Below, one piece after another: positions 20,408 to 47,338 of a DNA stretch of 64,000 nucleotides. Source of the stretch: Synechococcales cyanobacterium bin2.concoct.b11b12b14.033 (GTDB taxonomy: Bacteria > Cyanobacteriota > Vampirovibrionia > Caenarcaniphilales > Caenarcanaceae); the NCBI GenBank assembly GCA_013298875.1, contig JAAFJH010000001.1, positions 7,030-71,029 of the forward strand, in the 5' to 3' direction. A program made the translations under genes and the position numbers. The notes beneath the pieces are model-generated. The model had not been told where the DNA came from. It saw only the letters and a list, made by a program, of their open reading frames with translations, and did not search any database. Numbering within the stretch: position 1 is the first letter of the stretch; each line of letters opens with the position of its first letter.

Positions 20408-21588
20408 ATTTGAGAATATTTCAACTTATTAATTTGTTTTTTATTATTTTATTTTTTAGTGCTTGTGCCAAAAAACCAACTGCTCCACCCAAAGCACCAC
20501 CGCCTGTCGTCAAAACTATTCAGGTAAAAGAAAGCCAATTTTATGATTCCGAAAAATATTTGGCTACGCTTAAGTCTCGACAATCAGTCAATTTAAACCC
20601 AGAAATTATCAGTAAAGTCGAGAATATTTATTTTAAATCTGGCGACCGAGTTAGTAAAGGCCAATTATTAATTTCACTCAGGGCGGACGAAGAAATATCA
20701 TCTTTGAATTCACAAATTGCTTTATCAAGTAGCAAAAATGAAGCAATTTCTTCCAAAGGAGCTGAAGTACAAGAAGCAAAAGCCAATTTAGACTTTGCCA
20801 AAGGCCGCTATGAAAGATATAAACAATTACAGCAAAAAGACTTAATTAGTAAGAACCAATTAGAAGAATATGAAAATCAATTAGCGAAAGCTCAAAATAC
20901 TTATAATTCGCTTAAATTTAATCTTGCCGGAGCCAATGATGAGTTAAAACAAGCCAAATCTACCATTAATGAAAGACGAGCCAAAGTGAATAAATTACGC
21001 ATTGTGGCTCCTTTTAGCGGTATTGTACAAGATATTCCAGCTAAAGTTGGTGATTCAGTTTCTAATTCAACCACTTTAATTTCAATTGCTAATGCGGATA
21101 ATTTAGAAGTTTATTTGAATATTCCAGTCGATAAAGCTATTGGTGTAAAAAGCGGCTCTCTGATTGAATTATTGAGCCCCGACGATGAAATTTTAGCCAC
21201 TAGCCAGGTTTCATTTACTTCCTCAACGGTTGATCCGCAAACCCAAACCGTTTTAGTTAAAGCAAGTTTGAATAATAATGAAGGCTTATTCCGTGATAAT
21301 CAACAAATAAAATGCAGAGTTAAATACAAACAAAAAACTGGCATTTTAATTCCAGCTACGGTTATTTCGCGGTTTGGTGATACTACTTTTATCTTTTTAT
21401 TAGCCAAGGACGATAAAGGCCAAGCAATTGCCAAGCAAAAACCAGTTCAATTAAAAAAATTAGTTGATAATAAATCTTATGAAGTGGCTGAGGGGTTAGC
21501 TCCTGGCGATATTATAATCAGTACCGGCATTCAAAAATTAGCTGATAATTCCCCAGTTAAGCTTGCTGAGGAGGAAGTTGAAAAATGA
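20404..21588 (+). CDS. RND efflux periplasmic adaptor (membrane fusion protein, AcrA/HlyD family)
   Basis: 394 aa; lipoprotein-like N-terminus (FFSACAK), biotinyl/lipoyl-like hairpin, coiled-coil, beta-barrel domain; overlaps neighbours by 4 nt at both ends. Confidence 0.85.
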   Translation: MNLRIFQLINLFFIILFFSACAKKPTAPPKAPPPVVKTIQVKESQFYDSEKYLATLKSRQSVNLNPEIISKVENIYFKSGDRVSKGQLLISLRADEEISSLNSQIALSSSKNEAISSKGAEVQEAKANLDFAKGRYERYKQLQQKDLISKNQLEEYENQLAKAQNTYNSLKFNLAGANDELKQAKSTINERRAKVNKLRIVAPFSGIVQDIPAKVGDSVSNSTTLISIANADNLEVYLNIPVDKAIGVKSGSLIELLSPDDEILATSQVSFTSSTVDPQTQTVLVKASLNNNEGLFRDNQQIKCRVKYKQKTGILIPATVISRFGDTTFIFLLAKDDKGQAIAKQKPVQLKKLVDNKSYEVAEGLAPGDIIISTGIQKLADNSPVKLAEEEVEK

Positions 21589-24500
21589 ATTTAAATGTTT
21601 TTATCCAAAGGCCGATTCTGGCTTCGGTTTGTTCATTTTTATTTTTATTGGGAGGGTTAATCTGCATTCCAAATTTGCCTTTGGCTCAGTATCCAGACAT
21701 TGCCCCACCCCAAATTAGAGTACAGGCTACTTATTTAGGAGCAAATGCAGATACTGTTGAATCAGCCGTTACAACTCCGCTCGAAAAAGAGATTAATGGA
21801 GCTGAAGGTGTGCAATATATTACTTCAACCAGCACGGATAATGGCTCTTCACAAATTAGCGTTGTAATAGACCGATCACGAAATTTGGATGATGCCATTA
21901 TTGATATTCAAAACCGTATAAAAAAGGCTGAGCCACGTTTACCCCAAGAGGTCAGACAAAGTGGTGTTCAAGTTAATAAATTCTCGCCCGAAATTCTTAT
22001 GGTAGTGGCTTTTTATGCTGAAAATAGAGCTTATGATAATTATTTTATTAGCAATTATGTCGATCGTTACGTTGTTGAAAGCCTGAAAAGACTGAAAGGA
22101 GTCGGAGATATTCGTCTTTTTGGTGAAAGAAAATATGCTATGCGTTTGTGGCTTGATAATAATAAATTAGCGGCTTTAAGTTTAAGTGCTGGTGATGTAG
22201 TAAAGGCTTTGCAAGAGCAAAATATACAAGTAGCGGCCGGTCAAATTGGGCAAATGCCAGCACCTGAAGGGCAAGCGATACAATTACCAATTAAAACCCA
22301 AGGCAGGCTTCAAACAGTTGAAGAATTTGAAAATATTATTTTAAAGCGTAGTCCTAGTGGAGCTTTAATTCATTTTAAAGATATTGGCCGTGTGGAGCTG
22401 GGAGCTGAAGATTATAGTACTCTTTTACGCTTTAATGGTGATGAAAAAGCGGTTGGCATGGTCGTCAATCAATTACCTGGTTCTAATGCAATTGAAGTTG
22501 ACAAAAATTTAAAAATTGCCCTTAAAGAATTGGAAGCTAAATTTCCGCCAGGACTGCATTATAAATTGGGTTTAAATCCGACTGAATTTGTCAAAAAGTC
22601 AATTGATGAAGTTATTCACACTTTAATTGAAGCAATTTTACTAGTAGTTTTGGTGATTTTTATTTTCCTGCAAAATTGGCGTAGTGTTTTAATTCCAGTC
22701 ATTACGGTGCCAATTTCTTTGATTGGGACTTTCATTTTTGTCAAGGCTTTTGGATTTTCGATTAATACTTTAACTTTGTTTGGGCTAACTTTGGCTACTG
22801 GACTGGTGGTGGATGATGCCATTGTCGTTTTGGAAAATATTGAAAGATTAATTAATGAAAAGAAAATGTCTTCTTTTGAAGCGGCAACTGAATCGATGAA
22901 AGAAATTAGCGGGGCAGTTATGGCAATTTCTTTAGTTTTAATGGCAGTTTTTATTCCCGTTTCCTTTTTGGAAGGTGCAACTGGTCAGCTTTACCGGCAA
23001 TTTGCTTTAACTATTGCTTTTTCAATTGCGATTTCAACTTTTAATGCTTTAACTCTCACACCAGCTCTTTCGGTAATTTTACTCAGAAATCATGCAGCCG
23101 AAAGCCATAAGCAAAAGAATAAAGTTTTTCAGTTTTTTGATTCAGTGATTGATGGCTCAAAATATTGGTATGCAAAGTATTTAAGTTTTGTACTCAGAGC
23201 CAAAGGAATAGTTGTAATTATTTTTATAATTTGCTCTTTAGCTTCAATTCTTCTATTACAAATTTTGCCTAAAAGCTTTGTTGCTTCGGACGATAGAGGT
23301 TATTTGATTGTTAGTGTACAGTCTCCAAGTGGCAGTTCAATTGAAGTTACTAAAGAAGTTATGAAAAAAGCTGAAAAAATTATCGGTAAACAAGAAGAGG
23401 TTTTAGGTATTTTCTCAATTGTTGGTTTTAGCTTTTTGGGTTCAGGGCCAAGCAAAGGGACTATTTTTGTGCCATTGAAAAACCTCGAAGATCGAATTGG
23501 TAAAGGACATTCATCTGAGATAGTTTTAGGGCGTTTGCGAGGAGCTTTGGGTGGAATTTCCGAGGGTATAATTGTTGGTTTTCCGCCAGCTCCTTTGCCA
23601 GGCTTAGGGAATTTCGGTGGTTTTCAATATGAGCTTAAGGCCGAAGGTTCTAATATCGATCTTGACACTTTAGCTGGCACAGCTGCTGACTTGGTAAAAC
23701 AAGGAAATCAGACCAAAGGCTTAGTCGGTTTATTTACGGGTTTTACTACTAATGATCCTCGCCTGGTGGTAGAAATTAACCGTGAAAAAGCCAAATCCTT
23801 GAATGTAAACTTAAAAGATATTTTTGATACTTTACAAATTTATTTAGGCTCTCAGTATGTTAATGATTTTGAAATTATGAATAGAATTTACCGGGTTTAT
23901 GTGCAAGCTGATCAGCAGTTCAGAGCCAATCCTGAAGATATTACTAATGCTTATGTTCGCTCTTTAGATGGCCAAATGATTTCTTTGAATAATTTTTTAA
24001 CGGTTAAAGAAGAAACTGGGGCACAAAATATTTCGCATTTTAATCTTTTTAGATCAGTTGAAATTAATGGCTCCGCCGCACCTGGTTTTAGCTCGGGGCA
24101 AGCTTTAGACAACTTAAAAAACTTATCCGAAAGGATTTTGCCAAAAGGTTTTAGTTATGAATGGGGAGGATTGGCACGGGAAGAGGTAAAGGCTGGTTCT
24201 CAGGCCATTTGGGTTTTTGTTTTTGGTTTTATATTTGTATTTTTGATTTTAGCCGCTCTGTACGAAAGTTTAATCGATCCAATTATTATTTTACTTTCGG
24301 TACCCTTGGCCATTTTTGGCGGCCTTTTAGCTCAATATTTAAGGGGTTTACAAAATGATGTTTTTTGCCAGATTGGACTTTTAATGCTGATTGGACTAGC
24401 TAGTAAAAATGCAATTTTAATTGTCGAATTTGCCAATCAACTATACAAACACAAAAATAATAGCCCATTACGTGCAGTAATTAAAGCTGCTAGAACTCGC

Positions 24501-24701
24501 TATCGACCAATTATTATGACTTCCTTGGCTTTCATTTTTGGAATTTGGCCTTTAGTAGTAGCTCAGGGAGCTGGAGAAAATAGCCGTCATTCTTTAGGTA
24601 CTGTCGTTTTGGGTGGAATGATTGCAGCGACCGTTTTAAGTTTATTTGTGGTGCCAATTATTTACTTATTTGTGGTAAAAAAGCCAACACAAAGAAATTA
24701 A
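21585..24701 (+). CDS. RND multidrug efflux permease (AcrB/HAE1 family)
   Basis: 1038 aa; 12-TM RND architecture, conserved TM4 motif ...GLVVDDAIVVLENIER..., two large periplasmic loops. Confidence 0.95.
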   Translation: MNLNVFIQRPILASVCSFLFLLGGLICIPNLPLAQYPDIAPPQIRVQATYLGANADTVESAVTTPLEKEINGAEGVQYITSTSTDNGSSQISVVIDRSRNLDDAIIDIQNRIKKAEPRLPQEVRQSGVQVNKFSPEILMVVAFYAENRAYDNYFISNYVDRYVVESLKRLKGVGDIRLFGERKYAMRLWLDNNKLAALSLSAGDVVKALQEQNIQVAAGQIGQMPAPEGQAIQLPIKTQGRLQTVEEFENIILKRSPSGALIHFKDIGRVELGAEDYSTLLRFNGDEKAVGMVVNQLPGSNAIEVDKNLKIALKELEAKFPPGLHYKLGLNPTEFVKKSIDEVIHTLIEAILLVVLVIFIFLQNWRSVLIPVITVPISLIGTFIFVKAFGFSINTLTLFGLTLATGLVVDDAIVVLENIERLINEKKMSSFEAATESMKEISGAVMAISLVLMAVFIPVSFLEGATGQLYRQFALTIAFSIAISTFNALTLTPALSVILLRNHAAESHKQKNKVFQFFDSVIDGSKYWYAKYLSFVLRAKGIVVIIFIICSLASILLLQILPKSFVASDDRGYLIVSVQSPSGSSIEVTKEVMKKAEKIIGKQEEVLGIFSIVGFSFLGSGPSKGTIFVPLKNLEDRIGKGHSSEIVLGRLRGALGGISEGIIVGFPPAPLPGLGNFGGFQYELKAEGSNIDLDTLAGTAADLVKQGNQTKGLVGLFTGFTTNDPRLVVEINREKAKSLNVNLKDIFDTLQIYLGSQYVNDFEIMNRIYRVYVQADQQFRANPEDITNAYVRSLDGQMISLNNFLTVKEETGAQNISHFNLFRSVEINGSAAPGFSSGQALDNLKNLSERILPKGFSYEWGGLAREEVKAGSQAIWVFVFGFIFVFLILAALYESLIDPIIILLSVPLAIFGGLLAQYLRGLQNDVFCQIGLLMLIGLASKNAILIVEFANQLYKHKNNSPLRAVIKAARTRYRPIIMTSLAFIFGIWPLVVAQGAGENSRHSLGTVVLGGMIAATVLSLFVVPIIYLFVVKKPTQRN

Positions 24702-25846
24702 GTAGTCGGTAAATCGATTAAAGTGGCAATTTCTTTATCCATTAATTTATCAACTTCAGCCACTGGCTCGGCTCCAGATAAATCCGTTAAAATAATACGA
24801 CTAGATCTCATCCGAAAGTTAATTCTTTTTAATTCTCTTTCAATTTGTCTAATTCTTATTTGGCTTAAAAATTTTGATTCCGGAGTATTAAGATTTAAAG
24901 CGGCCGCTGCTTCATTTTTGGCTTCTTGCAATTCATTATAAGCTAGGGCTGCATCCGTTCTTTCTTGTTTGTATAAATGATATTGCTGACGCACTCTTTC
25001 TGCCACTTGGTCAATCATCATAAACATAATAACCATTTCTGTTTGACTTAACTGCATATGGTCGCTGTTTTTTTTAGCTTTTCCATTAATCAAATCACTG
25101 GCTAAACCAGCACCCACATAACTTGATAAAGAAGAAATATCAGTTGGAGCAACGGTTTGCAAAGCATAAAAAGGTAAGAAAATAGCGGTATTTAAAATTT
25201 GGCTTAAAACTTGATTTTTCTTTTGGTTTTTATCTTCGGGCGTTAATTTTTGAACAATGAAGCGAATAGTTTTATTTCTTTCGAGGGTTGCTCTCCACAA
25301 AATAGTTAATTGTTCCTGCTCAGTACGGGTTAAAGCATAATCAATTAAAGCTTGCTCGTCTTTATTAAGTTCAACTGAAGGCTGAATAAAATTAATAATA
25401 TCTAAGTTTTTTTTACCTTGTTCTTTACTTTCATCGGTAATTTTTTTTAATTCACTTTTCTCTTTTTCTTTTTCAGTTTTTTGGTCAGTTTTTGGTTCTT
25501 CAGAAGTATTATTTTTTTTATCATCTATTTCGATAGGCTTACTAATATCTTTATCGGCTTTAGTTTGTTTTTCAGGTATTGGTTTGCTTTTCAGCTTTGA
25601 TGATTTTTTCTTTTTAAATTCAGTCTTTTTTACTTCTTTAGTTTTAGGAATGGAATCATTAGTTTTTGCGGTCTCAGAAATTGTTGCTGGCTCAGATTCT
25701 TGCTTAGCCTTAATTGTATTTTGTCCTGATTTATCAGCGGTTGATTTTTCAGCTTCTTCTTCCCAAAATGTCTTACAATCAGCTTGGAAAGATAGAATTA
25801 TTAGTAAAGAAAAAATACAACATGTCAATAATAATTTTTTTTTCAT
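24698..25846 (-). CDS. Hypothetical secreted Lys/Glu-rich coiled-coil protein
   Basis: 382 aa; signal peptide, about 130 aa of K/E/T low complexity, C-terminal helical domain; stop overlaps the acrB-like stop convergently (4 nt). Confidence 0.4.
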   Translation of the reverse strand: MKKKLLLTCCIFSLLIILSFQADCKTFWEEEAEKSTADKSGQNTIKAKQESEPATISETAKTNDSIPKTKEVKKTEFKKKKSSKLKSKPIPEKQTKADKDISKPIEIDDKKNNTSEEPKTDQKTEKEKEKSELKKITDESKEQGKKNLDIINFIQPSVELNKDEQALIDYALTRTEQEQLTILWRATLERNKTIRFIVQKLTPEDKNQKKNQVLSQILNTAIFLPFYALQTVAPTDISSLSSYVGAGLASDLINGKAKKNSDHMQLSQTEMVIMFMMIDQVAERVRQQYHLYKQERTDAALAYNELQEAKNEAAAALNLNTPESKFLSQIRIRQIERELKRINFRMRSSRIILTDLSGAEPVAEVDKLMDKEIATLIDLPTT

Positions 25847-34423: not shown

Positions 34424-35629
34424 ATGACAAATCCAATTGGAGCAACTTCCACAGGACAAAAATATCAAACTCCAAGAAATAGTTTAAAACAAACTTGGGA
34501 GGAGCCTTCAGCTAGAACTATGGCTGAATTTGAGGCACAACAAGCCCAATCTCTAAGGGTTCCTAATCTTGAGGTAATAAAGGAATTGTTTACGAATGCT
34601 AAAACTGAAGCCCCCCAAAGCAAACTTTCAACTCCCGCCAGTAAATTATTAGAACCAGCTAATCAAAATCTTCAATTAACTGCTGAATTGCCAACTGATA
34701 AATTACTTCAAGAGTATGATACTTCACTCCAAACATTGGCTGCTGAGCATTATGCCAACTTACATGCTTTAACCCAATCAAATGAAGCAGATATTGAGGA
34801 ATTAAAAAGTAATATTGAAACAAAATTTAAAGAATTCTCAGCCAAAGAACTTCGGTCTCATCACGAAGCCGTAAAAAGAGCAGAAGAAGCCTTACTTTTA
34901 GCTAAAGCAGATTTGGCAAATGAAGAGAAAAAATTACTCGATATTAAGGGAGATTCACTAGAAGCTAAGAAAGCCAATTTATTAAAAGCTCACCAGAAAG
35001 CTCTGCAAACTGCTGGAAAAGAACATGAAAAAGCTGTGTCAAATGCAACTGGAGCCTATTATTTGAAAAAGAATAAATCGGAAGAGTTGGCAGAAAAAGT
35101 TAATAGTGTGTCAACCGCTTTTCTTTCTCAATTACCCCAAGAAGGGAAATCCACAACGCCTAATTCATTTCAAGATTCTATTACTGGATTAGGAGTATTG
35201 AAAAAGAATCTTCTTTCTTCAGCTAAAGCTAAACCTCAGTCAAATAATTCAGGTACGCCAACTACTTCGGAGCCATTAAGTAATAATACTACTTCCTCCA
35301 ACAACAATGAGTGGTTACCTAAAGCAGGTCAATCAATGCTTACCCCAAGGACAAAACCGTCAGTTTCACTTCCTAATAATGAAACAAGTGCTTCAAAACC
35401 AACGATTGAATCAATGACGACTCAGATTAAAAATAGTAATTTTATTAGTGCGGAAGATAAACAACAAAGACTTAGCTTAATTAAGGATTTTGATGAAATG
35501 CTTTCGGAAGGTAAAAAAGGAGAAGCCTTTAACCACTTAAACAAAATGATAACTAATAGAGAAGGAGTGCTAGCTAGTAAACTTAAAGACCTCTGGAATG
35601 CAACTCACCCAAATAATCCAATCGGTTAA
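34424..35629 (+). CDS. Hypothetical coiled-coil / low-complexity protein (candidate secreted effector)
   Basis: 401 aa; no signal peptide, disordered N-terminus, central coiled coil, S/T/N-rich tract (SNNSGTPTTSEPLSNNTTSSNNNEW). Confidence 0.5.
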   Translation: MTNPIGATSTGQKYQTPRNSLKQTWEEPSARTMAEFEAQQAQSLRVPNLEVIKELFTNAKTEAPQSKLSTPASKLLEPANQNLQLTAELPTDKLLQEYDTSLQTLAAEHYANLHALTQSNEADIEELKSNIETKFKEFSAKELRSHHEAVKRAEEALLLAKADLANEEKKLLDIKGDSLEAKKANLLKAHQKALQTAGKEHEKAVSNATGAYYLKKNKSEELAEKVNSVSTAFLSQLPQEGKSTTPNSFQDSITGLGVLKKNLLSSAKAKPQSNNSGTPTTSEPLSNNTTSSNNNEWLPKAGQSMLTPRTKPSVSLPNNETSASKPTIESMTTQIKNSNFISAEDKQQRLSLIKDFDEMLSEGKKGEAFNHLNKMITNREGVLASKLKDLWNATHPNNPIG

Positions 35630-35683: not shown

Positions 35684-36094
35684 GTGAAAAGTTATAAAAG
35701 TCAATTCTTAAAATCTCAAAATCTTAAATATCCTGATTCAGATCATAAAAATATGATTATTCAACGAACAAATTTATCTGCTCAATTTATTAAAAGCCAA
35801 GTTGCTTACAAACATAAATCGGCACATTCCGTAGAGACGGGTAGTTATAGGGGGAGAATTTCAGAAGTTCGTGGATTTATTCTTGGTTTATTTTTGCTCG
35901 AACATCAAGCAAAATCATTAATTAAAAAACTTGATGAATTTGAATCTGCAATTCGAGATACTCGCTTCCTTACTGCTAAAGAAATTATAAATTCTTTTGA
36001 TCAATCGACCACAGACCCTTTAAATATTAAACCCGACGAAATAACAATTCAGAGACATTTACAAGAAATATTAAATCACGAAAGAAAATCTTAA
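35684..36094 (+). CDS. Hypothetical basic protein
   Basis: 136 aa; tracked ORF begins at GTG; first ATG (MIIQRTN...) is 23 codons in; no recognisable motif. Confidence 0.3.
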   Translation: MKSYKSQFLKSQNLKYPDSDHKNMIIQRTNLSAQFIKSQVAYKHKSAHSVETGSYRGRISEVRGFILGLFLLEHQAKSLIKKLDEFESAIRDTRFLTAKEIINSFDQSTTDPLNIKPDEITIQRHLQEILNHERKS

Positions 36095-37828: not shown

Positions 37829-37945
37829 TTATAAAAGTCCTAATTTTTTAAGTCTAAAACTCATGGCTTGACTAGAAACCTGAAAAGTATTAGCTAAGTC
37901 ATTAACTTCTTCGCATTGATTCCAGTACAAAGAAACTAATTGCAT
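37829..37945 (-). pseudogene. 38-codon remnant resembling the C-terminus of an ImmA/IrrE-family (DUF955) metallopeptidase
   Basis: Minus-strand ORF MQLVSLYWNQCEEVNDLANTFQVSSQAMSFRLKKLGLL* has the ...VSxQAMxxRLxxLGL* ending characteristic of ImmA/IrrE proteins; no upstream HExxH part remains. Confidence 0.3.
37832..37851. repeat. Left copy of the 20-bp direct repeat flanking hicBA (taaaagtcctaattttttaa)
   Basis: Identical 20-mer recurs at 38452-38471. It encodes ...KKLGLL* of the ImmA-like remnant on the minus strand. Confidence 0.8.
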
Positions 37946-37964
37946 TGAATAATCTAAGGAATTA

Positions 37965-38174
37965 TTAAATTAAGTCTTTTTCTGTGAGGTTAGCTTGTTT
38001 CATTATTGATTTTAATATCCCAATTCCTAAATCTTGATTTGAATGAACTGGCACAGAAATTGCAAAGTTATTTCCTTTTTTTCTATATACATGATGACTT
38101 CCATTAACACGAATAAAGATCCAGCCATGTTTTTCTAAAACTTTACAAAATGCTTTACCAGAATAACTTTTCAC
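37965..38174 (-). CDS. hicA: HicA-family mRNA interferase toxin
   Basis: 69 aa; YcfA/HicA fold with GWxxxRxxGSHHxY motif (KHGWIFIRVNGSHHVYRK). Confidence 0.85.
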   Translation of the reverse strand: MKSYSGKAFCKVLEKHGWIFIRVNGSHHVYRKKGNNFAISVPVHSNQDLGIGILKSIMKQANLTEKDLI

Positions 38175-38377
38175 AAATTAAACTCCATCAATTGAGAACG
38201 CTTATCTAATTCACCTTCTGGAATATTCATTGCTTCAATCCAGCCTTCAGCAGACTCTTTTAAGTTTTCAATTATCTCTTCAATAGTTTTGCCTTGAGTA
38301 AAACAACCAGGTAAAGCTGGTACTTCCGCCCAGTAACCGCCTTCTTCTGCTTCGTGAATAATTGCTTGAATTTTCAT
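38171..38377 (-). CDS. hicB: HicB-family antitoxin (short UPF0150 form)
   Basis: 68 aa; MKIQAIIHEAEEGGYWAEVPALPGCFTQGKTIEEIIENLKE matches the HicB RNase-H-like N-domain; 4-nt overlap with hicA downstream. Confidence 0.7.
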   Translation of the reverse strand: MKIQAIIHEAEEGGYWAEVPALPGCFTQGKTIEEIIENLKESAEGWIEAMNIPEGELDKRSQLMEFNL

Positions 38378-38451
38378 CTTGTTTTTTTATTACTAATTAC
38401 ATCTTACCTAAAAAAATATTAACTTAAAATAATACAAATCTAGCCTGTTTT

Positions 38452-38471
38452 TAAAAGTCCTAATTTTTTAA
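38452..38471. repeat. Right copy of the 20-bp direct repeat flanking hicBA
   Basis: Exact copy of 37832-37851, 620 bp away; sits in the 5' leader of the OLD-like gene. Confidence 0.8.
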
Positions 38472-38509
38472 AGTTTATTTTACAATCAAGCAAATGAAAA
38501 AGTTTTGAG

Positions 38510-39964
38510 ATGTTTAAGAACATGGCAATCTTAAAAGAAGTATGTATTGAAAAATTTCGAGATATAAAAGATCTAATTTTACCAATTGGTGAGCGGCTTA
38601 CAATAATAGCTGGGCGAAATGGAACTTCCAAAACAACAATTTTAGGAATGCTAGCACATGGGTTTACTTTTGATGCAGAACATAAAACATTATTTGGATC
38701 TGCTTTTCATACAGACTTAAAAGAGGTACTCCAGCTAAGTGATGAAGAGATTCAAAGTACAAAAATTAATATAAATCTCCACTCTAAAGAAAGACCATTT
38801 ATTCAGCTAATACCTACTTATCATAAAGAGGAGGATAGACACAGAATTGTTGCAAGAGGAAAAGCGGAAGACTCAGAGGGAAAGCTTAAGGCAATAAGTT
38901 CAAAACATTCTTGTCCAGTAATTTACTTAACTCTTGGCAGATTAAGTCCACTATTTGAGCTTACATCTGCCGATCCAGATCATTCTTTTCAAGAGGAAAG
39001 CTTAAGTGAGGATGAGCTAAAAATAGGCCAACACTTACATAAAGCTTTAATTAACATTGATGAAGAGCTTATCAGTTTTGAAAGACTGACATCAAAGATA
39101 AAAACAAAAAGTGGAAAGAATACCAGAAAAATAGCTGCGGGAACGAAGAAGTATGGGAAATATGGCATGTCCGCAGGACAGGATACTATTGTTCAAATTG
39201 CTTTTGCCATCCTTTCCTTCAAGCGATTAAAAGAAAAAACTCAAGATTATAAAGGAGGTCTTTTATTAATTGATGAAGTTGAAGCGACCTTGCATCCATC
39301 TGCCCAGAGAAGTCTTATTCAAATACTAAATCAATATTCCAGAGAGTATAGCATGCAAATTGTTTTAACTACCCATTCATGGTCATTTCTTCAAGACAGT
39401 CGTAAGGAAAAATCGCAGATCAACTATATTACAAAAGATGAAGGGGAATTTAAATTACTTACAGATATGCAGGGGATAGAAGAAGATTTCTTTTCGAGAG
39501 CATTTGATCAAAGAAAATCAAAAATACAAATACCTGGTTTTTGTGAAGATAAATCTGCAAAGAAATTCTTGGAACTCATTCTTTCAAAAGAAAATAAGGA
39601 GCAAATTCATCTTGGAGTATTGGGTACACGTGATGTTATTGTGCAGCTGGCAAAGAATTTCTTTAAGTGTAAATTGAATCCTTGCGTATGGTTCTTGGAT
39701 GGAGATCAATTGAGATCTAAAAACTTAGAAAAGGGAGTACTCGTTTTACCTTCTAATAGGCAAGTTTGCCCAGAATTGGAAATTTACGAGTTTCTAGTTG
39801 GCTTAGAATCTTCAGATTCTTTGTGGCAATTAATTAGCTATACAAAATCTCAAATGTTTCACAAGTCAAATAGTGAGCCATTAAAGTCTAGGCCAGAAAA
39901 CAAAGCGAAAAGATTATGGGAAGATATCTCAAATACAAGTCGTAAAGTGAACATAAGACTTTAA
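38510..39964 (+). CDS. OLD-family ATP-dependent nuclease (ABC/AAA_21-type ATPase fused to a C-terminal Toprim domain)
   Basis: 484 aa; Walker A GRNGTSKTT, ABC-signature-like MSAGQ, Walker B LLLIDEVEATLHP, H-loop VLTTHS; then Toprim-like glutamate (GFCEDKSAKKFLE) and DxD (WFLDGDQ). Confidence 0.75.
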   Translation: MFKNMAILKEVCIEKFRDIKDLILPIGERLTIIAGRNGTSKTTILGMLAHGFTFDAEHKTLFGSAFHTDLKEVLQLSDEEIQSTKININLHSKERPFIQLIPTYHKEEDRHRIVARGKAEDSEGKLKAISSKHSCPVIYLTLGRLSPLFELTSADPDHSFQEESLSEDELKIGQHLHKALINIDEELISFERLTSKIKTKSGKNTRKIAAGTKKYGKYGMSAGQDTIVQIAFAILSFKRLKEKTQDYKGGLLLIDEVEATLHPSAQRSLIQILNQYSREYSMQIVLTTHSWSFLQDSRKEKSQINYITKDEGEFKLLTDMQGIEEDFFSRAFDQRKSKIQIPGFCEDKSAKKFLELILSKENKEQIHLGVLGTRDVIVQLAKNFFKCKLNPCVWFLDGDQLRSKNLEKGVLVLPSNRQVCPELEIYEFLVGLESSDSLWQLISYTKSQMFHKSNSEPLKSRPENKAKRLWEDISNTSRKVNIRL

Positions 39965-40082
39965 GTGGAAACGCAATATTAACTAAAATTATCAAGGAAT
40001 GGATAAAGCGGAATCAAGCGATAGTAGACGTATTTAATAAAGATTTTCAACAAACAATTATAAAAATCCAAAGGGCTAAAAA

Positions 40083-40949
40083 ATGAGCTTTGATTCACCT
40101 CTTCGATATCCAGGCGGCAAAGGTCGTCTAACAAACTACATTAAATCAATTTTTGAACTGAATGATTTAGTAGGTGGTGAATATGTTGAACCTTATGCTG
40201 GTGGTGCAGGAATAGCCTGTTCACTTTTACTTTCTGGTCATGTATCTAAAATTCACCTAAATGATTTAAACAAGTCTATTTATGCTTTTTGGTACTCAAT
40301 AATGAATAGTACTGATGAATTTTGTAAATTGATTTTTGACACTGAACTAACTATTGAGGAATGGTATAAACAACGAGAAATTCAAAAAGATTATGATTCA
40401 TGGCTTTCACTTGGTTTCTCTACATTTTTCTTAAATCGTACTAATCGATCTGGAATTATTACTGCTGGTGTAATTGGAGGATTGAAGCAAGATGGAGAAT
40501 GGAAATTAGATGCTCGATTCAATAAAAGCAATTTAATTTCAAGAATTGAAAAACTTGCGCAATATAAAAAACAAATTAAGTTATCTAATAAAGACGCTGT
40601 TATTTTTGTGAAGGAAACTATCAAAAAACTTCCTGAGAAATCTTTGATCTATTTTGATCCACCTTATTATATGAAAGGGCAAAAACTGTATGCAAATTAC
40701 TATGAGCATCATGATCATCTTCAAATCTCTTCTTTAATTCAAGAAAAAATAACGCAAAATTGGATTGTTTCTTACGATTATGTTCCTGAAATTGCAAAAA
40801 TGTATAAAGTTCAGTCAAAAGTTTATGATTTAAGTTACAGTGCTGGTAATCGTTATAAAGGTAAAGAAATAATGTTTTTTTCTCCCAATTTAAAGAAACC
40901 CACAACTATAAGCAAATCAAGCCTTTTGGAGAGAAAGAAGTTTAGCTAA
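40083..40949 (+). CDS. dam: DNA adenine methyltransferase, D12 (Dam) class
   Basis: 288 aa; N-terminal YPGGKGRL (Dam AdoMet/FxGxG-region equivalent), catalytic DPPY (IYFDPPYY); 118 bp downstream of the OLD-like gene, same strand. Confidence 0.85.
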   Translation: MSFDSPLRYPGGKGRLTNYIKSIFELNDLVGGEYVEPYAGGAGIACSLLLSGHVSKIHLNDLNKSIYAFWYSIMNSTDEFCKLIFDTELTIEEWYKQREIQKDYDSWLSLGFSTFFLNRTNRSGIITAGVIGGLKQDGEWKLDARFNKSNLISRIEKLAQYKKQIKLSNKDAVIFVKETIKKLPEKSLIYFDPPYYMKGQKLYANYYEHHDHLQISSLIQEKITQNWIVSYDYVPEIAKMYKVQSKVYDLSYSAGNRYKGKEIMFFSPNLKKPTTISKSSLLERKKFS

Positions 40950-43790
40950 ATATTTACCAGTAAAAGATTGTTTATTTTTTATAATTTGTATTGGGGTACC
41001 TTCGGCGATAATTTCCCCGCCAGCTTGTCCACCTTCAGGCCCCAAATCAATGATCCAATCAGCTTGTTTAATAACATCCAAATTATGCTCAATAATTAAA
41101 ACAGTATTTCCCGCCTCTGCTAATTTGTGTAGTACTAACATTAATTTTTCAATATCATACCAATGCAAGCCGGTAGTCGGCTCATCCAAAATATAAAGCG
41201 TTTTGCCAGTATGTCTGCGTGATAATTCGGTGGCCAATTTTATGCGCTGAGCTTCGCCACCAGAAAAGGTAGTTGCAGATTGACCTAATTGTATATAACC
41301 CAAGCCTACTTCTTCTAAAGTTTTAAGCTTATTATAAACCGCTGGAATTGACTCAAAGACATTGTTAGCTTGGCTTACCGTCAGATTGAGTATGTCGGAG
41401 ATCGAATAGCCTTTATATTTTACTTCTAAAGTTTCTTGATTATATCTTTTGCCATCACAGACTGCACATTTCACAAAAACCGAAGGCAAAAAATTCATTT
41501 CAATTTCTAAATGTCCTTGCCCATTACAAGCCTCACAACGCCCACCTTTGACATTAAACGAAAAACGCCCTGGGCCATAACCTCTTAGCTTAGCGTCTGA
41601 CATAGTAGCAAAAAGCTCTCTGATTGGTGTGAAAGCCCCCGTATAAGTAGCCGGATTAGAATGGGGAGTTCTTCCAATTGGGCTTTGGTCAATTTCAATT
41701 ACTTTGTCTATATTTTCCAGTCCTTCAATTAAATCAACACCCACTGGTTTTTGGCGATTTTTGAGTAAGCAACTTTGCAAATAAGGAAAAAGCAAATTCA
41801 TAATTAAACTTGACTTGCCCGAACCAGAAACTCCTGTAACCAAAACCATTTTTCCAAGCGGAATTTCAGTACTTACATTTTTTAAATTGTTTAAATGAGC
41901 ATTTGTAATTTTAATTGATTGATTATTTCCTTCTCGAGGTTTAATTGGGCCTTTTAATTGCCATTCTCCTGATAAATATTTGCCCGTTAAAGATTCTTCG
42001 GTTGAACAAATACTTTCAAAACTGCCGGTTGCTACTATTTCTCCGCCTTCTCTTCCAGCTTTTGGCCCAACATCAATAATCCAATCACAAGCTCTAATGG
42101 TATCTTCATCGTGCTCAACCACTAAAACTGTATTTCCCAAGTTTTTTAATTTTTTTAAAGTTTCGATTAAGCGGTCATTATCTCTTTGGTGCAGCCCAAT
42201 GCTAGGTTCATCCAAAACATATAAAACTCCCGATAAACCAGACCCAATTTGTGTCGCTAATCTAATTCTTTGGGCTTCTCCGCCCGATAAAGTTGATGCA
42301 CCACGAGACAAGTTTAAATAATTTAAGCCCACATCTTTCAAAAACTGCAAACGATTTTTAATTTCCAGAATAATTCTTTCCGCTACTTTTAAGTCAAATT
42401 CACTAACTAAAGAAGGTATTTTCTCAAAAAACGCTAAAGTATCATCAATGCCTAAACTTGTTATTTCATTAATTGATAGATCGCCAAATTTAACTGCCGA
42501 AGATTCTTTACGCAGACGAGAACCATTACATTCCGGGCAAGTCTGAAATGACATATAACCTTCGAGGTCGCTTTTGGCTTTGTCATTACTGGAGCTGCAA
42601 GCTTTTTGATATTTTTTGTTTAAATTATTAATTACTCCTTCAAAGGGCATATTAAAAGTTAAAAGATCGTCCCCATCAAAAGAATCATAACTTAATTCAA
42701 TTGGCTCATCGGAACCGTATAAAACAGTTTTTCTAATTTCTCGGCTCAAGGATTTCCAGGGCGTGGCGGGTTTAATTTTAAAAGCTTTGCAAACCGAATT
42801 TAATAATTGTACATAATAATTAGTGCTTGACTTTGCCCATGGCACAATACAATTCAGCAAAGCCATATCTGTATTTGGAATTAATTTAGAGAGGTCAAAT
42901 TCTTGGGTATGTCCTAATCCATGGCACTCTGGGCAAGCACCTTCTGGGCTATTAAAAGAAAATAATTTGGGTGAAAGAGGCGGCAAACTTCCATGTCCTT
43001 GCGGGCAAGCTAAATGCTCCGAAAAGTGTAGCTCAGAAGTAATTTCTTGATCGTCATTCACAATTGCAAATTTAGCAAAGCCATTTCCTTTACGCAGAGC
43101 CAAACCCAAACTATCTGCTAGGCGAGAACGGTTTTCCAATTTGACACTTAAACGGTCAATGACAATTTCGATATTATGTTTTTTATTTTTAGTTAATTTA
43201 ATTTCCTCATCCAATGAATAAATTATTTCATTTACCTTAACTCGCAAAAATCCTTCTTTTTTTAATTTGCCAAATAAAGTTGTATGGTCACCTTTTTTCA
43301 GTTCAGCTACTGGAGCTAAGATTAATCCTTTTTGATCTTCGGCCTTGCTAAAAACTTCATCAATAATTTGATCAATACTTTGTTTGCTTACAGCAGTGCC
43401 ACAAATTGGGCAAAATTGTTTTCCGACACGTCCAAATAAAAGCCTTAAGTGATCGTAAATTTCGGTTACTGTTCCAACGGTTGAACGTACATTATGGCTA
43501 GCTGACTTTTGGTTAATAGCAATGGCGGGGCTAAGTCCTTCAATTGAATCAATGTCTGGTTTATCAACTTGGCCTAAAAACTGCCGAGCATAAGAAGATA
43601 AAGATTCGACATAACGGCGCTGGCCTTCTGCAAAAATGGTATCAAAAGCTAAAGAACTTTTGCCAGAGCCAGAAACACCTGTTATAACCACCAATTGGTT
43701 TTTAGGAATGCAAACATCAATATTTTTTAAATTATGTTCTCTTGCTCCAGTAACTTTAATCCATTCTTGGTTTTTCCCATCAGCAGTCAT
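40917..43790 (-). CDS. uvrA: Excinuclease ABC subunit A
   Basis: 957 aa; two ABC ATPase modules (GVSGSGKSSL twice), zinc-finger cysteines, UvrB-binding and insertion domains in canonical order; last 11 codons overlap dam's last 11 codons on the opposite strand. Confidence 0.97.
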   Translation of the reverse strand: MTADGKNQEWIKVTGAREHNLKNIDVCIPKNQLVVITGVSGSGKSSLAFDTIFAEGQRRYVESLSSYARQFLGQVDKPDIDSIEGLSPAIAINQKSASHNVRSTVGTVTEIYDHLRLLFGRVGKQFCPICGTAVSKQSIDQIIDEVFSKAEDQKGLILAPVAELKKGDHTTLFGKLKKEGFLRVKVNEIIYSLDEEIKLTKNKKHNIEIVIDRLSVKLENRSRLADSLGLALRKGNGFAKFAIVNDDQEITSELHFSEHLACPQGHGSLPPLSPKLFSFNSPEGACPECHGLGHTQEFDLSKLIPNTDMALLNCIVPWAKSSTNYYVQLLNSVCKAFKIKPATPWKSLSREIRKTVLYGSDEPIELSYDSFDGDDLLTFNMPFEGVINNLNKKYQKACSSSNDKAKSDLEGYMSFQTCPECNGSRLRKESSAVKFGDLSINEITSLGIDDTLAFFEKIPSLVSEFDLKVAERIILEIKNRLQFLKDVGLNYLNLSRGASTLSGGEAQRIRLATQIGSGLSGVLYVLDEPSIGLHQRDNDRLIETLKKLKNLGNTVLVVEHDEDTIRACDWIIDVGPKAGREGGEIVATGSFESICSTEESLTGKYLSGEWQLKGPIKPREGNNQSIKITNAHLNNLKNVSTEIPLGKMVLVTGVSGSGKSSLIMNLLFPYLQSCLLKNRQKPVGVDLIEGLENIDKVIEIDQSPIGRTPHSNPATYTGAFTPIRELFATMSDAKLRGYGPGRFSFNVKGGRCEACNGQGHLEIEMNFLPSVFVKCAVCDGKRYNQETLEVKYKGYSISDILNLTVSQANNVFESIPAVYNKLKTLEEVGLGYIQLGQSATTFSGGEAQRIKLATELSRRHTGKTLYILDEPTTGLHWYDIEKLMLVLHKLAEAGNTVLIIEHNLDVIKQADWIIDLGPEGGQAGGEIIAEGTPIQIIKNKQSFTGKYLAKLLSLQKA

Positions 43791-43957
43791 AATTTATTTA
43801 TATAATTCAAGTCAATAAGTAAAATTATATAGTTTTTTAGATTTTTTCAATGTTAAAATGTGTTGATTGAATTACAAACTTGACATATTGATTGTTTTTT
43901 AGCACACTTAGCTTATGCTTTGCTGCGTACTGAAAAAAGGCTAACCTGTTAAATAAC

Positions 43958-45652
43958 ATGGCTAACGAAAGAATTACAGAAAATATTGTGAGGAATCTTT
44001 TAAGGGATAAAGGGTATTATGATAATGATAAAATCATAATTGAAGAACAATCATCTGCCAACCCCCAAATAAACAAATTACTGAAATTAGCCTCTAAGAG
44101 TGGTACGGGAAAAGGTTATCCTGAATTTATTATATCCTTTAAAAACAAACCTAATGACCTTATAGTCATTGAATGTAAGGGGAGCATTACATATCACGAG
44201 AGTAAGGATAGAGAGCAATATAAGAATTATGCAGTTGACGGGGTCTTGCTGTATGCCTCTTATTTGAAAGATTCGTTTAACGTAACAGCTATTGCGGTAA
44301 GTGGTGAAAATGAGAGAGAGAAAAAAATATCATCTTTTATTTGGCTGAGAGAGCATTACACCTATAAAAACATTCAGGATAAAATACTATTAGCTCCTGA
44401 TGAAATTTCCAATATAATAGTAGAGCAATCCAAACCTATTTCAGAAGATGAGTTAATAAAAAAGGCTATTGAATATAACTCCTTTTTACACAAATACTCT
44501 ATACCCGAAGTTGAAAGATGTACCCTGATAAGCTCAATATTGATAGCGTTACAAGACAAACCTTTTCTAAGCAGCTACAAAGAATATACAAACAACAGGG
44601 ATTTAATAGAGAACTTAATTGAGGCTTGCAAGCGTGTTTTAAAAAGTAAGGAATTAGAAGATAGAAAGACAGAAGTAATCATTGATGAATACTCAAAGTT
44701 TAAAAACAACAATGGTTCATTTAACTCTCAGACATTCTATAATAAAAAGACTAAAAGCGACGAAGCAAACACTATACTTAGAGATTTTATAATTCTCATT
44801 AATGAAAATATACTTCCTTATATCAATAATAGTGAATTTGATGTATTAGGTAAGTTCTATACACAGTTTATAAGATATGCAGGTAGCGATAAAAAAACGG
44901 GGTTAGTCTTAACACCTACTCATATAACAGATTTATTTTGTGAAATAGCCGATTTAGGTATAGATGATATAGTTTTTGATGAGTGCTGCGGTACTGCAGG
45001 TTTTTTAGTCTCAGCTATGAATTATATGCTAAAGAAAGCAGGGAACAACTCTGAAAAGAAGAAAATAATTAAGTCATCTCAATTATTGGGTATTGAAGAT
45101 CGTTCTGATATGTTTTCTCATGCTTGCTCTAATATGATGATGAGGGGGGACGGCAAAAGCCACATTCTTTACGGCGACTGTTTCAAGGAAGAAAATAAAA
45201 GTATTATTAGAGCAAATAAACCGACAAAAGCCTTTTTAAATCCTCCATACCAAGATGGGAATGCAGCCGAACAATTAGAATTTATCGAAAATGCTTTAAG
45301 TTGCCTAGTAAAAGATGGGCTCTGTATTGCCATTTGTCAAATGTCAACAACTGTTTCGAGTAATAAGGATGTAATAGAAGTTCGGGAACGGATATTGGCC
45401 AACCATACATTAGAAGCCACATTTTCAATGCCTATCGATTTGTTTCACCCCGTCGGAGTTAATACGAGCATTTTGATCTTCAAGGCACATCATGTGCATC
45501 CCCAAAGGAAAAAAACATTTTTTGGGTATTTTAAAAACGATGGTTTTGTGAAAACCAAAAATCATGGAAGGGTAGATAAGAACAATCAGTGGGACGAAAT
45601 TAAAAAAACTTGGCTTAATGCTTACATTAATAAAGAAAGCATTGTAGGATAA
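43958..45652 (+). CDS. N6-adenine DNA methyltransferase (gamma class, HsdM/Eco57I-like) with N-terminal restriction-endonuclease-like domain; no adjacent HsdS/HsdR
   Basis: 564 aa; N-terminal PEFIISF...LIVIECKG resembles a (P)D/E...(D/E)xK nuclease or HsdR-N-like core. The methyltransferase has motif I VFDECCGTAGFL, then motif IV NPPY (FLNPPYQDG); it has no target-recognition domain and no specificity subunit nearby. Confidence 0.7.
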   Translation: MANERITENIVRNLLRDKGYYDNDKIIIEEQSSANPQINKLLKLASKSGTGKGYPEFIISFKNKPNDLIVIECKGSITYHESKDREQYKNYAVDGVLLYASYLKDSFNVTAIAVSGENEREKKISSFIWLREHYTYKNIQDKILLAPDEISNIIVEQSKPISEDELIKKAIEYNSFLHKYSIPEVERCTLISSILIALQDKPFLSSYKEYTNNRDLIENLIEACKRVLKSKELEDRKTEVIIDEYSKFKNNNGSFNSQTFYNKKTKSDEANTILRDFIILINENILPYINNSEFDVLGKFYTQFIRYAGSDKKTGLVLTPTHITDLFCEIADLGIDDIVFDECCGTAGFLVSAMNYMLKKAGNNSEKKKIIKSSQLLGIEDRSDMFSHACSNMMMRGDGKSHILYGDCFKEENKSIIRANKPTKAFLNPPYQDGNAAEQLEFIENALSCLVKDGLCIAICQMSTTVSSNKDVIEVRERILANHTLEATFSMPIDLFHPVGVNTSILIFKAHHVHPQRKKTFFGYFKNDGFVKTKNHGRVDKNNQWDEIKKTWLNAYINKESIVG

Positions 45653-46342: not shown

Positions 46343-47338
46343 ATGCCTCAAAATCAGAGACTCTCGCAGTTGACTTTATTAAGTTTATCTTTATCTTTTT
46401 CACCCAGTATCATATCAATTGCAGCTTCCAACTCTTTGGCAGAAATTCAATCCGCCAGCCAAAATCAGATGATAGCCATTGCTTATGGAGAATATTATCC
46501 ACCGACTAATCATAATCATCAGCCGCAGCAACAATATTACCCAAGGCCGCAGCAAAGATATTATCCAAGACCACCCAGAAACAGATTTCCAAGTGGGGGA
46601 TATGCCACAACTCCCAGAATACCAATTTGTCCCATGCCGCCTGCTCAGCCACAACCAATGCCGCCCTTAGATGATCCACACCATCCTGTGGCTTATAAGC
46701 CAGCTATTTACCTTTATCCCGAAAAGCCAACTGAAGTTGAAGTTTTTATTGATCCGAAAATTAACTTAACTATTGATATTCCAAAATATAATCCCCAAAA
46801 AGGTTGGAAAGTTTTAGCTTATCCAAATGGCTTACTCGAAGATCTTCAATTAGAACAAACTGATCCTGAATCTTATAAAAAATATTTAAATTCAACTGGA
46901 CTAGAATATGCTTATAGTTCTGCTCTCAGAGGTACTTATCCTTATTTGTATTGGGAAGGTACTCTTATCGAAGAAGCCAGTAAAAAAACTAATGGTTGGA
47001 TAGTTTCAGACTCTGAAATCAAAACTTTTTTAAGTGCAAGACTTGATGAAATGAATTTCAGTCGTATTGAGAAAAAAGACTTTTTAGATTATTGGGTCAT
47101 TAAAATCAAAGAAAAACAAAAACCTTTCTATTGGATTTCTTTCGTTTTAACTAAAGAATTTGACCAAAAGCACCCCCTAAAAATTGTGCCTAAGCCAGAT
47201 TCAATCATGAGAGTATTAATTGAAGTAGCTCCATTGGATGAAAAGCCAAGTAAATTACCTGAACCCCAAAAATTGGAAAGTATTATTCGTAAAGGTTTTA
47301 CTGTTTTAGAATGGGGGGGTTATTTCGTGAAGAAATAA
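46343..47338 (+). CDS. Hypothetical secreted protein with proline-rich YYPRP-repeat linker
   Basis: 331 aa; signal-like N-terminus, Q/P-rich tract with two YYPRP(Q/P) repeats, about 230-aa globular C-terminal domain of unknown function. Confidence 0.45.
   Translation: MPQNQRLSQLTLLSLSLSFSPSIISIAASNSLAEIQSASQNQMIAIAYGEYYPPTNHNHQPQQQYYPRPQQRYYPRPPRNRFPSGGYATTPRIPICPMPPAQPQPMPPLDDPHHPVAYKPAIYLYPEKPTEVEVFIDPKINLTIDIPKYNPQKGWKVLAYPNGLLEDLQLEQTDPESYKKYLNSTGLEYAYSSALRGTYPYLYWEGTLIEEASKKTNGWIVSDSEIKTFLSARLDEMNFSRIEKKDFLDYWVIKIKEKQKPFYWISFVLTKEFDQKHPLKIVPKPDSIMRVLIEVAPLDEKPSKLPEPQKLESIIRKGFTVLEWGGYFVKK

Follow-up and report, generated by a model that had tools for sequence, protein, structure and literature searches.

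A 64,000-nucleotide stretch of the metagenome-assembled genome Synechococcales cyanobacterium bin2.concoct.b11b12b14.033 (contig JAAFJH010000001.1; hereafter the window) carries, side by side on the forward strand, a gene for an ABC-ATPase/Toprim-like fusion protein and a gene for a D12-class N6-adenine DNA methyltransferase. Comparison with homologous loci suggests that the pair is a methylation-linked defense cassette of the PD-λ-5 kind, in which an ATPase-Toprim effector replaces, and in other genomes supplements, the ParB/HEPN effector, and in which methylation marks self. We assign this reading a probability of about 0.45. It is favored because the effector gene adjoins the methyltransferase gene, mostly directly upstream, at the site of the ParB/HEPN gene PD-λ-5_A, with overlapping stop and start codons, and because orphan methyltransferases of this kind are nearly absent, the two-gene form is dominant in viruses, and methyltransferase clades partnered by the ATPase only appear stable.

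The ATPase-Toprim gene (open reading frame 1, ORF1; HEC-04/IbfA-like) occupies positions 38510–39964 and encodes 484 amino acids (aa) as read, with a frameshifted 3′ end. The methyltransferase gene (ORF2; PD-λ-5 'B' subfamily) occupies positions 40083–40949 and is intact, encoding 288 aa. The first-pass annotation, made from the letters of the window, had reported these two ORFs on the same strand, 118 bp apart, and all of the motifs that it quoted are present in them (read as GRNGTSKTT, SAGQD, LLLIDEVE, TTHS, FCEDKSA, FLDGDQ and DPPY). Translation of ORF1 probably starts at the ATG at 38522, since the database entry has 480 aa and family members begin at the same position.

Both components have relatives with validated roles in defense. 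PD-λ-5 is a two-gene system of an E. coli prophage, described as 'ParB/HEPN, methyltransferase' and broadly protective (Vassallo et al. 2022, PMC9519451). It was cloned in an mrr-deleted host, and the need for this host indicates that the PD-λ-5 methyltransferase modifies host DNA; its authors call it a compacted 'RM+Abi' (restriction-modification plus abortive infection) system (PMC9519451). Operons of ParB/HEPN and methylase genes had been noted in 2013 (PMC3710099). HEC-04 is a validated single-gene ABC-ATPase/TOPRIM defense protein, in which mutation of the Walker A lysine or of the E/D/D residues abolishes defense; the protein first came to light inside Hma systems, and its induction is toxic (bioRxiv 10.1101/2024.01.29.577857). 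IbfA, from the IncI1 plasmids R64 and pUA1135, is a plasmid homolog of HEC-04 with an abortive-infection-like action (PMC12111858).

The ATPase-Toprim protein

The N-terminal part of ORF1 is an ABC ATPase. Matches to Pfam AAA_15 (8.8e-20), AAA_21 (8.2e-16) and SMC_N span residues 8–300, and the structural matches of this region include OLD, GajA, Rad50 and SMC heads. Among 26 homologs, the invariant positions comprise G35, N37, T39 and K41 of the Walker A/P-loop motif GRNGTSKTT (residues 35–43; 38612–38638), S221–D225 and I254–E256 of the ABC signature SAGQD (221–225) and the Walker B/D-loop motif LLLIDEVE (251–258; together 39170–39283), and T288–S290 of the H-loop TTHS (287–290; 39368–39379). 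The C-terminal part contains a Toprim-like core (39539–39775), made up of FCEDKSA (344–350, with E346), FLDGDQ (395–400, with D397 and D399) and LP...PE (413–422); all of these motifs lie on the forward strand. In the C-terminal domain, the 26-sequence alignment showed that E346–D347, L396–D397, L413–P414 and P421 were invariant, and G398 and D399 were conserved in at least 90% of the sequences. The glutamate and the DxD motif of the Toprim-like core, on which the first-pass annotation had made its nuclease assignment depend, are retained in the family (E346 and D397 invariant, D399 at least 90%).

A search of about 5.8 billion proteins returned 1314 homologs of ORF1, typically 490–540 aa long and 30–38% identical, with 88–99% of the query aligned. 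Since the alignments run over the full length, the homologs constitute a coherent two-domain family. The AlphaFold model of ORF1 has a mean predicted local distance difference test score (pLDDT) of 80, and places E346 after strand 1 and the DxD motif after strand 3 of a small α/β domain. With the full-length model, the top Foldseek matches were TsOLD (6p74, 1e-12), GajA and the retron Eco8 effector, the PDB entries listed beside 6p74 being 8u7i, 8x5i and 9lpa; with the isolated C-terminal domain, Foldseek returned no significant match. Pfam searches of the ORF1 C-terminus, with the whole protein and with 16 isolated domains (E up to 1), found no Toprim, DUF4435, RloB or OLD domain. A profile of the C-terminal domain retrieved only noise from PDB sequences, three fragments from a word-indexed homolog search, and close family members alone from an exhaustive search of representatives, which gave no bridge to annotated Toprim families.

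The full-length relatives of ORF1 were found among defense proteins. Its best PADLOC match was the retron model ATPase-Toprim_I-B (1.6e-22, 78 bits, residues 11–410), and the HEC-04 model matched residues 171–430 (3.2e-18). The HEC-04 model also matched the isolated C-terminal domain in 10 of 16 family members (best E 3e-07). Alignment of the ORF1 family profile with R64 IbfA using hhalign gave a probability of 99.4% (E 2.5e-21) over 378 columns across both domains, and paired E346 with IbfA E319, and D397 and D399 with IbfA D372 and D374. BLAST of ORF1 against plasmids did not reach IbfA, and profile comparison was needed for this link. Like HEC-04 and IbfA, the ORF1 family joins an ABC ATPase and a compact, C-terminal Toprim-like domain in a single polypeptide (about 500–520 aa in the relatives), and it has both the Walker A lysine (K41) and the E/D/D metal site; the E...DxD triad of ORF1 lines up with the residues that HEC-04 itself is known to need for defense. 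Unlike them, it forms a separate clade, unconnected by BLAST, and is usually coupled to a D12 methyltransferase, whereas HEC-04 and IbfA are stand-alone genes. The ibfA gene of R64, for example, has proQ/finO-like and hypothetical genes on its flanks and lacks a methyltransferase neighbor.

The first-pass annotation had assigned ORF1 to the OLD family. Its order of an ABC ATPase, with Walker A, signature, Walker B and H-loop motifs, followed by a Toprim-like domain is indeed that of OLD proteins (P2 Old and TsOLD in class 1, GajA of Gabija in class 2 and the retron Eco8 effector in class 3). However, the PADLOC models of Old, GajA and PtuA, the NCBIfam models of Eco8 and PtuA, and PDB 6p74 match parts of the ATPase region of ORF1 alone, far under the curated cut-offs. 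The Toprim domain of ORF1 is compact in a protein of about 525 aa, compared with OLD, GajA and Eco8 chains and models of about 510–750 residues. The context of ORF1 also differs from those described for OLD proteins, which stand by themselves or accompany a UvrD-like helicase or the reverse transcriptase and noncoding RNA of a retron: no UvrD-like helicase or reverse transcriptase gene adjoins ORF1 and, unlike in Gabija, there is no adjoining GajB helicase gene. On these comparisons, ORF1 appears to be OLD-like in a broad sense, belonging to the HEC-04/IbfA and retron I-B branch, and not a canonical OLD protein. The overall layout given in the first-pass annotation is supported: an ABC ATPase, a Toprim-like C-terminal part and, next to this gene, a methyltransferase of the D12 class.

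The methyltransferase

ORF2 was matched nearly end to end by the PADLOC model PD-Lambda-5_B (6.2e-121, 401 bits, residues 2–280), followed by the REBASE-type model MTase_II PDLC03358 (4.7e-109, 362 bits), and contains the Pfam domain MethyltransfD12 (4e-17). Its motifs LRYPGGK, EPYAGGAG and DPPY (residues 192–195) are conserved and intact, as expected of an active methyltransferase of a classical type II restriction-modification system. ORF2 thus looks like an active N6-methyladenine (m6A) methyltransferase of a defense-validated subfamily, as judged from its sequence. It had been called D12/Dam in the first-pass annotation; the D12 class holds, and the Dam part does not, since the NCBIfam dam model TIGR00571 scored 55.1 bits against a cut-off of 114.85.

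PD-λ-5 resembles the window cassette in the subfamily of its methyltransferase, in its layout of effector then methyltransferase, often overlapping, and in its carriage by prophages. Many genomes also hold an ATPase-Toprim gene in one operon with PD-λ-5_A and PD-λ-5_B. The difference is that the ParB/HEPN 'A' component defines PD-λ-5, and the sole partner of the methyltransferase in the window is the ATPase-Toprim protein. A hidden Markov model (HMM) built from 17 PD-λ-5_A-like genes had no match when run against the window translated in all six frames (E up to 10), PD-Lambda-5_A is missing among the 25 best PADLOC matches of ORF1, and there is no ORF between or beside the two genes that could take the PD-λ-5_A position.

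The pairing had been put forward as an unprecedented hybrid of restriction-modification and OLD-type defense. As the methyltransferase already forms part of a validated system (PMC9519451), the finding is better described as an effector-swap variant. The OLD classes covered in a review are single genes, Gabija and retrons, without any reference to a methyltransferase context (PMC10568477), and such a context is not described in the HEC-04 preprint (bioRxiv 10.1101/2024.01.29.577857) or in the preprint on the tRNase activity of P2 Old. On this evidence, the pairing of a HEC-04-like ATPase-Toprim protein with a PD-λ-5 methyltransferase is previously unnamed yet widespread, an earlier mention being possible, and is not a categorically new system. 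PADLOC-DB 2.0.0 has no family-specific model for the ATPase (best match 78 bits). PD-λ-5 would probably go uncalled in the window because 'A' is missing, and such loci are probably left annotated as 'AAA family ATPase' and 'DNA adenine methylase'. Exactly these two names, in this order, are given to the pair at the end of a prophage on a Clostridium butyricum megaplasmid.

Recurrence of the gene pair

To examine whether the pair is co-inherited, as the first-pass annotation had suggested checking, loci centered on the ATPase were collected; the counts are without correction for phylogenetic redundancy, and many of the viral contigs look near-identical. With one genome per species, 70 of 80 loci were informative, and 57 of these contained the methyltransferase, 25 as a two-gene form and 32 with PD-λ-5_A in addition; in the other 13, the ATPase had full flanks and no methyltransferase. 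The methyltransferase homologs in this sample were 37–55% identical to that of the window, and the third gene scored up to 8e-164 on PD-Lambda-5_A models. Host taxa ranged over Bacteroidota, Bacillota, Pseudomonadota, Melainabacteria, candidate phyla and archaea. Both genes lay on one strand in 23 other two-gene loci, with gaps of −26 to +196 bp, mostly below 80 bp.

The pair was also present in viruses. Among 80 viral contigs, 73 were informative and 66 had the methyltransferase (60 in the two-gene form and 6 with PD-λ-5_A), leaving 7 in which the ATPase had full flanks and no methyltransferase. The order ATPase then methyltransferase on one strand was found in 59 of the 60 two-gene loci, with listed gaps of −3 to about 100 bp. 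Six records of phage genomes in the public databases encode the ATPase (Citrobacter phiNP, three Streptococcus prophages and Vibrio phage ValB1MD-2, the last in two records), and all six had the methyltransferase within about 1.5 kb. Candidates for an intact pair are found in Citrobacter phage phiNP (OR565852, 42.1–44.8 kb), Acinetobacter nosocomialis GNU001 (CP107049, near 2.89 Mb), Pseudomonas sp. BR20 and C. butyricum pCFSA3989. Taken together, these samples strongly support the co-inheritance of the two genes.

A fourth, independent sample was centered on the methyltransferase, and was thus unbiased for its partner. Of the 80 metagenomic loci whose methyltransferases are nearest to that of the window, 51 had PD-λ-5_A only, 13 had the ATPase only, 8 had both and 8 had neither. 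Four of the 8 partnerless loci had less than 200 nt of upstream sequence and one had 795 nt, so that close homologs with full flanks and no partner numbered 3 of 80. By these counts the methyltransferase is almost never an orphan, and the concern that it might be a solitary enzyme widespread in the lineage, raised in the first-pass annotation, finds no support in this sample. In loci without PD-λ-5_A, the ATPase usually adjoins the methyltransferase, mostly immediately upstream, which is where PD-λ-5_A lies in classical loci.

Clustering of 138 methyltransferases gave clades of 13 and 5 members that are purely ATPase-partnered, which argues for stable lineages; other clades were mixed, and the nearest relatives of the window's methyltransferase are PD-λ-5_A-partnered. 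On the evidence of these sequences, effectors have evidently been swapped around a conserved methyltransferase. The ATPases of many ATPase-only loci (the metagenomic loci L104, L120, L127 and L135, and others) belong to a longer subclade of 559–586 aa with internal inserts, an extended region past the Toprim domain, and a DxD motif that in some members reads LDSD or LDAD. Their architecture is unchanged, with no recognizable extra domain. The methyltransferases of these loci may be the 13-member purely ATPase-partnered clade.

Two genes that are often found together may simply be cargo of the same prophages and islands: the ATPase-Toprim protein would be a stand-alone effector of the abortive-infection type, the methyltransferase would shield the mobile element from host restriction, and the two would merely travel together. 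Prophages commonly carry genes of both kinds as morons, the pair is found at prophage ends and in temperate phages, the ATPase occurs alone in some loci, and the methyltransferase has a different partner in PD-λ-5. Reshuffling would be expected of such cargo, yet order, strand and near-zero spacing are kept across bacterial phyla, archaea and viruses, the methyltransferase subfamily almost never occurs without one of the two effectors, and some of its clades are purely ATPase-partnered. We therefore consider independent carriage highly improbable.

As a separate observation, an IS4/IS5-type transposase gene (DDE_Tnp_1) is inserted between the ATPase-Toprim and methyltransferase genes in Flavobacterium sp. 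RS13.1 (L054, 7545–8342).

Candidate mode of action

In the PD-λ-5-like reading, the core of the cassette would be the D12-class m6A methyltransferase of the PD-λ-5_B subfamily, which would methylate resident DNA. Its effector would be a protein of about 525 aa of the HEC-04/IbfA branch, in which an ABC ATPase is fused to a compact Toprim nuclease domain. The ATPase head would serve as sensor and switch, and the E...DxD site of the Toprim domain as a metal-dependent nuclease. The co-translated methyltransferase would provide the self mark, sparing the host's or the prophage's own DNA from the nuclease, while incoming unmodified phage DNA would be attacked. The sequences show a conserved, mobile operon with recognizable domains and catalytic residues, an alternative or additional ParB/HEPN partner, and carriage by prophages. 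We infer the nuclease activity and the anti-phage function, and the gating of the nuclease by methylation is the most conjectural.

In the most specific version of this reading, the ATPase-Toprim protein would be a genuinely methylation-gated, ATP-dependent, OLD-like restriction enzyme, and the PD-λ-5-type m6A methyltransferase would be a hub that licenses at least two unrelated effectors, ParB/HEPN and ABC-Toprim. We regard this version as rather doubtful. If it were true, a class would be added to the OLD-like proteins, and restriction-modification would gain a new two-gene type, mostly carried by prophages. Should the pair work as one system, it would join two separately described defense families, the HEC-04/IbfA-type effectors and the PD-λ-5 methyltransferase, make a single methyltransferase subfamily the common core for interchangeable effectors, and add a methyltransferase-coupled context to the OLD-like scheme of alone, helicase and retron. 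The cassette is small, widespread, and present on phages whose hosts can be cultured (Citrobacter, Streptococcus, Vibrio, Acinetobacter, Pseudomonas and Clostridium), which makes methylation gating of an ABC-Toprim nuclease directly testable.

The ATPase-Toprim family in other contexts

Several results weigh against a nuclease restrained by the methylation mark, some of them from family members found apart from this methyltransferase. In one locus (L003, 3144–10641), the gene order is hsdM-hsdS-ATPase-hsdR, with the homolog between hsdS and hsdR, at the position of prrC in EcoprrI; another (L009), in which an N6_Mtase-domain gene also lies upstream of the ATPase, looks like a further type I locus. 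In two loci at about 4100–7500, the ATPase immediately follows an NgoPII endonuclease gene and a C5 methyltransferase gene (L069), or an NgoPII endonuclease gene with a C5 methyltransferase gene in the locus and a 346-aa ORF as neighbor (L066). These type I and NgoPII hosts own a nuclease and use other methylation chemistry, and so count against the methyltransferase as self-protection. The locus L023 also has a C5 methyltransferase gene. Elsewhere the ATPase stands without any methyltransferase between polA and holA (L039), and in further loci without this methyltransferase its neighbors are SMODS, Fic, NYN or housekeeping genes.

The seven viral contigs without a methyltransferase (L200, L202, L203, L204, L210, L217 and L219; about 4164–6668) encode a homolog of about 615 aa directly downstream of an ORF of 216–217 aa. 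The ORF of L200, which was the one scanned, encodes a CI-like repressor with HTH_3 and Peptidase_S24 domains, and the site right after such a repressor is the classical position for prophage superinfection exclusion. The solo copies and those in other contexts indicate that the nuclease is not universally dependent on this methyltransferase. As far as its gene neighborhoods tell, the ATPase-Toprim family appears to be often a passenger of other restriction-modification systems.

Further points come from loci that retain this methyltransferase and from the known relatives. Both PD-λ-5_A and the ATPase were present in 40 of the 138 classified methyltransferase loci, where the ATPase resembles an add-on: the three-gene loci keep the A-then-B core of PD-λ-5, with the ATPase added at either end. 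The ATPase-Toprim protein shows no evident domain for reading DNA sequence. The characterized relatives HEC-04, IbfA, P2 Old and PARIS AriB function without a methyltransferase, and several of them act as abortive-infection effectors, P2 Old and AriB being reported to be tRNases. The redundancy in the locus counts also lessens the weight of the recurrence.

Many of these observations would suit a second-line guard in the manner of PrrC or PARIS ('RM + Abi'), with the ATPase-Toprim protein as a latent effector of abortive infection that might cleave RNA or tRNA. Tied genetically, and perhaps physically, to a modification or restriction module, it would fire when a phage disables or evades that module, and the methyltransferase would be its guarded or regulating partner and not a protective mark. 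The homologs embedded at the prrC site or next to NgoPII, the solo copies at the exclusion site of prophages, the retention of the A-then-B core in three-gene loci, the discovery of the toxic HEC-04 within Hma systems, the abortive-infection-like action of IbfA, the reported tRNase activity of AriB and P2 Old, and the description of PD-λ-5 as 'RM+Abi' by Vassallo et al. all fit such a guard. The two-gene form does not: it lacks a restriction nuclease for which a guard could stand in, and a solitary methyltransferase is no defense, yet this form dominates the viral contigs (60 of 73). Moreover, about 80% of the informative loci are tied to one methyltransferase subfamily, which is far tighter than generic embedding, and the stop/start overlap suggests stoichiometric co-production. 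We regard a guard function as the main alternative to the PD-λ-5-like reading, though less likely than it.

Comparison with the systems from which the guard model is drawn gave likeness in concept more than in sequence. PARIS (the ABC ATPase AriA with the Toprim protein AriB) and PrrC-EcoprrI likewise combine an ABC ATPase sensor with a nuclease effector tied to restriction-modification. However, PARIS consists of two proteins with no dedicated methyltransferase, its AriA and AriAB models match the ATPase segment of ORF1 alone and weakly, and the effector of PrrC is a HEPN domain rather than a Toprim domain. MADS, Hma, BREX and type I restriction-modification share the concept of a DNA methyltransferase with an ATPase-driven effector, whereas the window cassette lacks a helicase and has just two genes. 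Specific homology to these systems is absent (NCBIfam MAD3 4.7e-05, against a cut-off of 420 bits).

The 3′ end of the ATPase-Toprim gene in the window

As read, ORF1 covers positions 2–473 of the 504-position family HMM and, in the exhaustive search, positions 2–149 of the 187-position profile of the C-terminal domain. The addition of one base or the removal of two anywhere within 39941–39963 on the forward strand yields a protein of 524–525 aa that covers HMM positions 2–502, which places a one-base frameshift, or a sequencing error, in this interval. The terminal helix that is missing from the window protein (about 40 codons) contains nearly invariant W and F residues (family consensus W(K)xxNxxExxxFxxxF). 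Its out-of-frame remnant lies at 39955–40086 on the forward strand (KTLSGNAILTKIIKEWIKRNQAIVDVFNKDFQQTIIKIQRAKK, followed by a stop codon), so that the helix is encoded in another frame within the 118-bp spacer (...GNAILTKIIKEWIKRNQAIVDVFNKDFQQTIIKIQRAKK, followed by the stop). The TGA of the remnant overlaps the ATG of the methyltransferase gene as ATGA. From the restored reading and this overlap, we infer that the ancestral arrangement was a translationally coupled operon. The spacer, which had been taken for true intergenic sequence, is accordingly an artefact of the frameshift.

The window copy of the ATPase-Toprim gene would thus be either mutated or mis-assembled. A contig from a short-read assembly of SRR9948933 (L081) is identical to the window from 39953 on, with 39941–39952 outside its coverage; it may share source reads with the window. 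If the shift is real, the cassette of this genome would be a decaying remnant, in which the ATPase-Toprim gene has been inactivated and a working solitary methyltransferase is left, a state compatible with any mechanism for the intact copies. The loss of a conserved helix, the recurrence of the sequence from 39953 on in the second assembly, and the fully intact methyltransferase motifs agree with this, and genes for toxic nucleases are usually lost to inactivation. Against decay, the ATPase and Toprim catalytic motifs are all intact with no further stops, and the truncated protein might still fold. The shift could also be an assembly error in a metagenome-assembled genome, for which the second assembly, perhaps from the same reads and lacking 39941–39952, is a limited control. 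We tentatively allow that the window cassette may be decaying toward a methyltransferase-only state, and place this somewhat below an even chance.

Genomic surroundings

The cassette lies in a largely housekeeping region, which includes gltX, fba, a homoserine dehydrogenase gene and an RND efflux operon. Together with a HicA/HicB toxin-antitoxin pair (37965–38377, reverse strand; Pfam HicA_toxin 3e-20, HicB_lk_antitox 4.2e-10), it sits between a glutamine amidotransferase gene and uvrA. The HicAB pair is the divergent upstream neighbor of the cassette, and was not seen as a conserved companion in other loci. The right-hand boundary is formed by the housekeeping gene uvrA (40917–43790, reverse strand; NCBIfam UvrA 1434.8 bits), whose 3′ end overlaps that of the methyltransferase gene by 33 nt on the opposite strand (40917–40949). 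The closest named matches of the window UvrA are from Candidatus Caenarcaniphilales (70–72% identity; Melainabacteria/Vampirovibrionia).

In a relative of the window genome (L166), the UvrA protein is 94% identical, and uvrA is the only region in common (40916–43868 of the window and 9918–12872 of L166, 87% nucleotide identity). Both flanks of uvrA differ from those in the window, and carry genes for T5orf172, a 685-aa N6_Mtase protein and an EVE-domain protein. The absence of the cassette from this relative indicates that it is accessory. Homology between the two genomes ends exactly at 40916, so that the C-terminal tail of the methyltransferase reads into the end of uvrA and marks the insertion junction. 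With different defense-like genes flanking both sides in both genomes, uvrA looks like a hotspot for variable defense genes in this lineage. The defense island that had been described around the pair is a small one of about 3 kb: the HicAB pair is indeed beside the cassette, but the second methyltransferase gene lies across the housekeeping gene uvrA.

A scan of 37900–41200 for promoters and terminators gave sites no more numerous than in shuffled sequence, and a search of the window against Rfam matched a tRNA alone, about 21 kb from the cassette.

That second gene, beyond uvrA (43958–45652, forward strand), encodes 564 aa, of which residues 294–552 form an N6_Mtase domain. The protein matches the PADLOC model REase_MTase_IIG PDLC03608 nearly end to end (2.9e-107), and its target-recognition domain is not obvious. 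Type IIG enzymes seem to be longer as a rule. In the vicinity of the cassette, four ORFs of some size are without a Pfam match (34424–35629, 401 aa; 35684–36094, 136 aa; 46343–47338, 331 aa; and 24698–25846, 382 aa), and the first two of these are also without a convincing NCBIfam or PADLOC match. Three overlapping ORFs at 18995–24701 (470, 394 and 1038 aa), which by their sizes were candidates for a type I restriction-modification system, encode the RND efflux components OEP, HlyD and AcrB.

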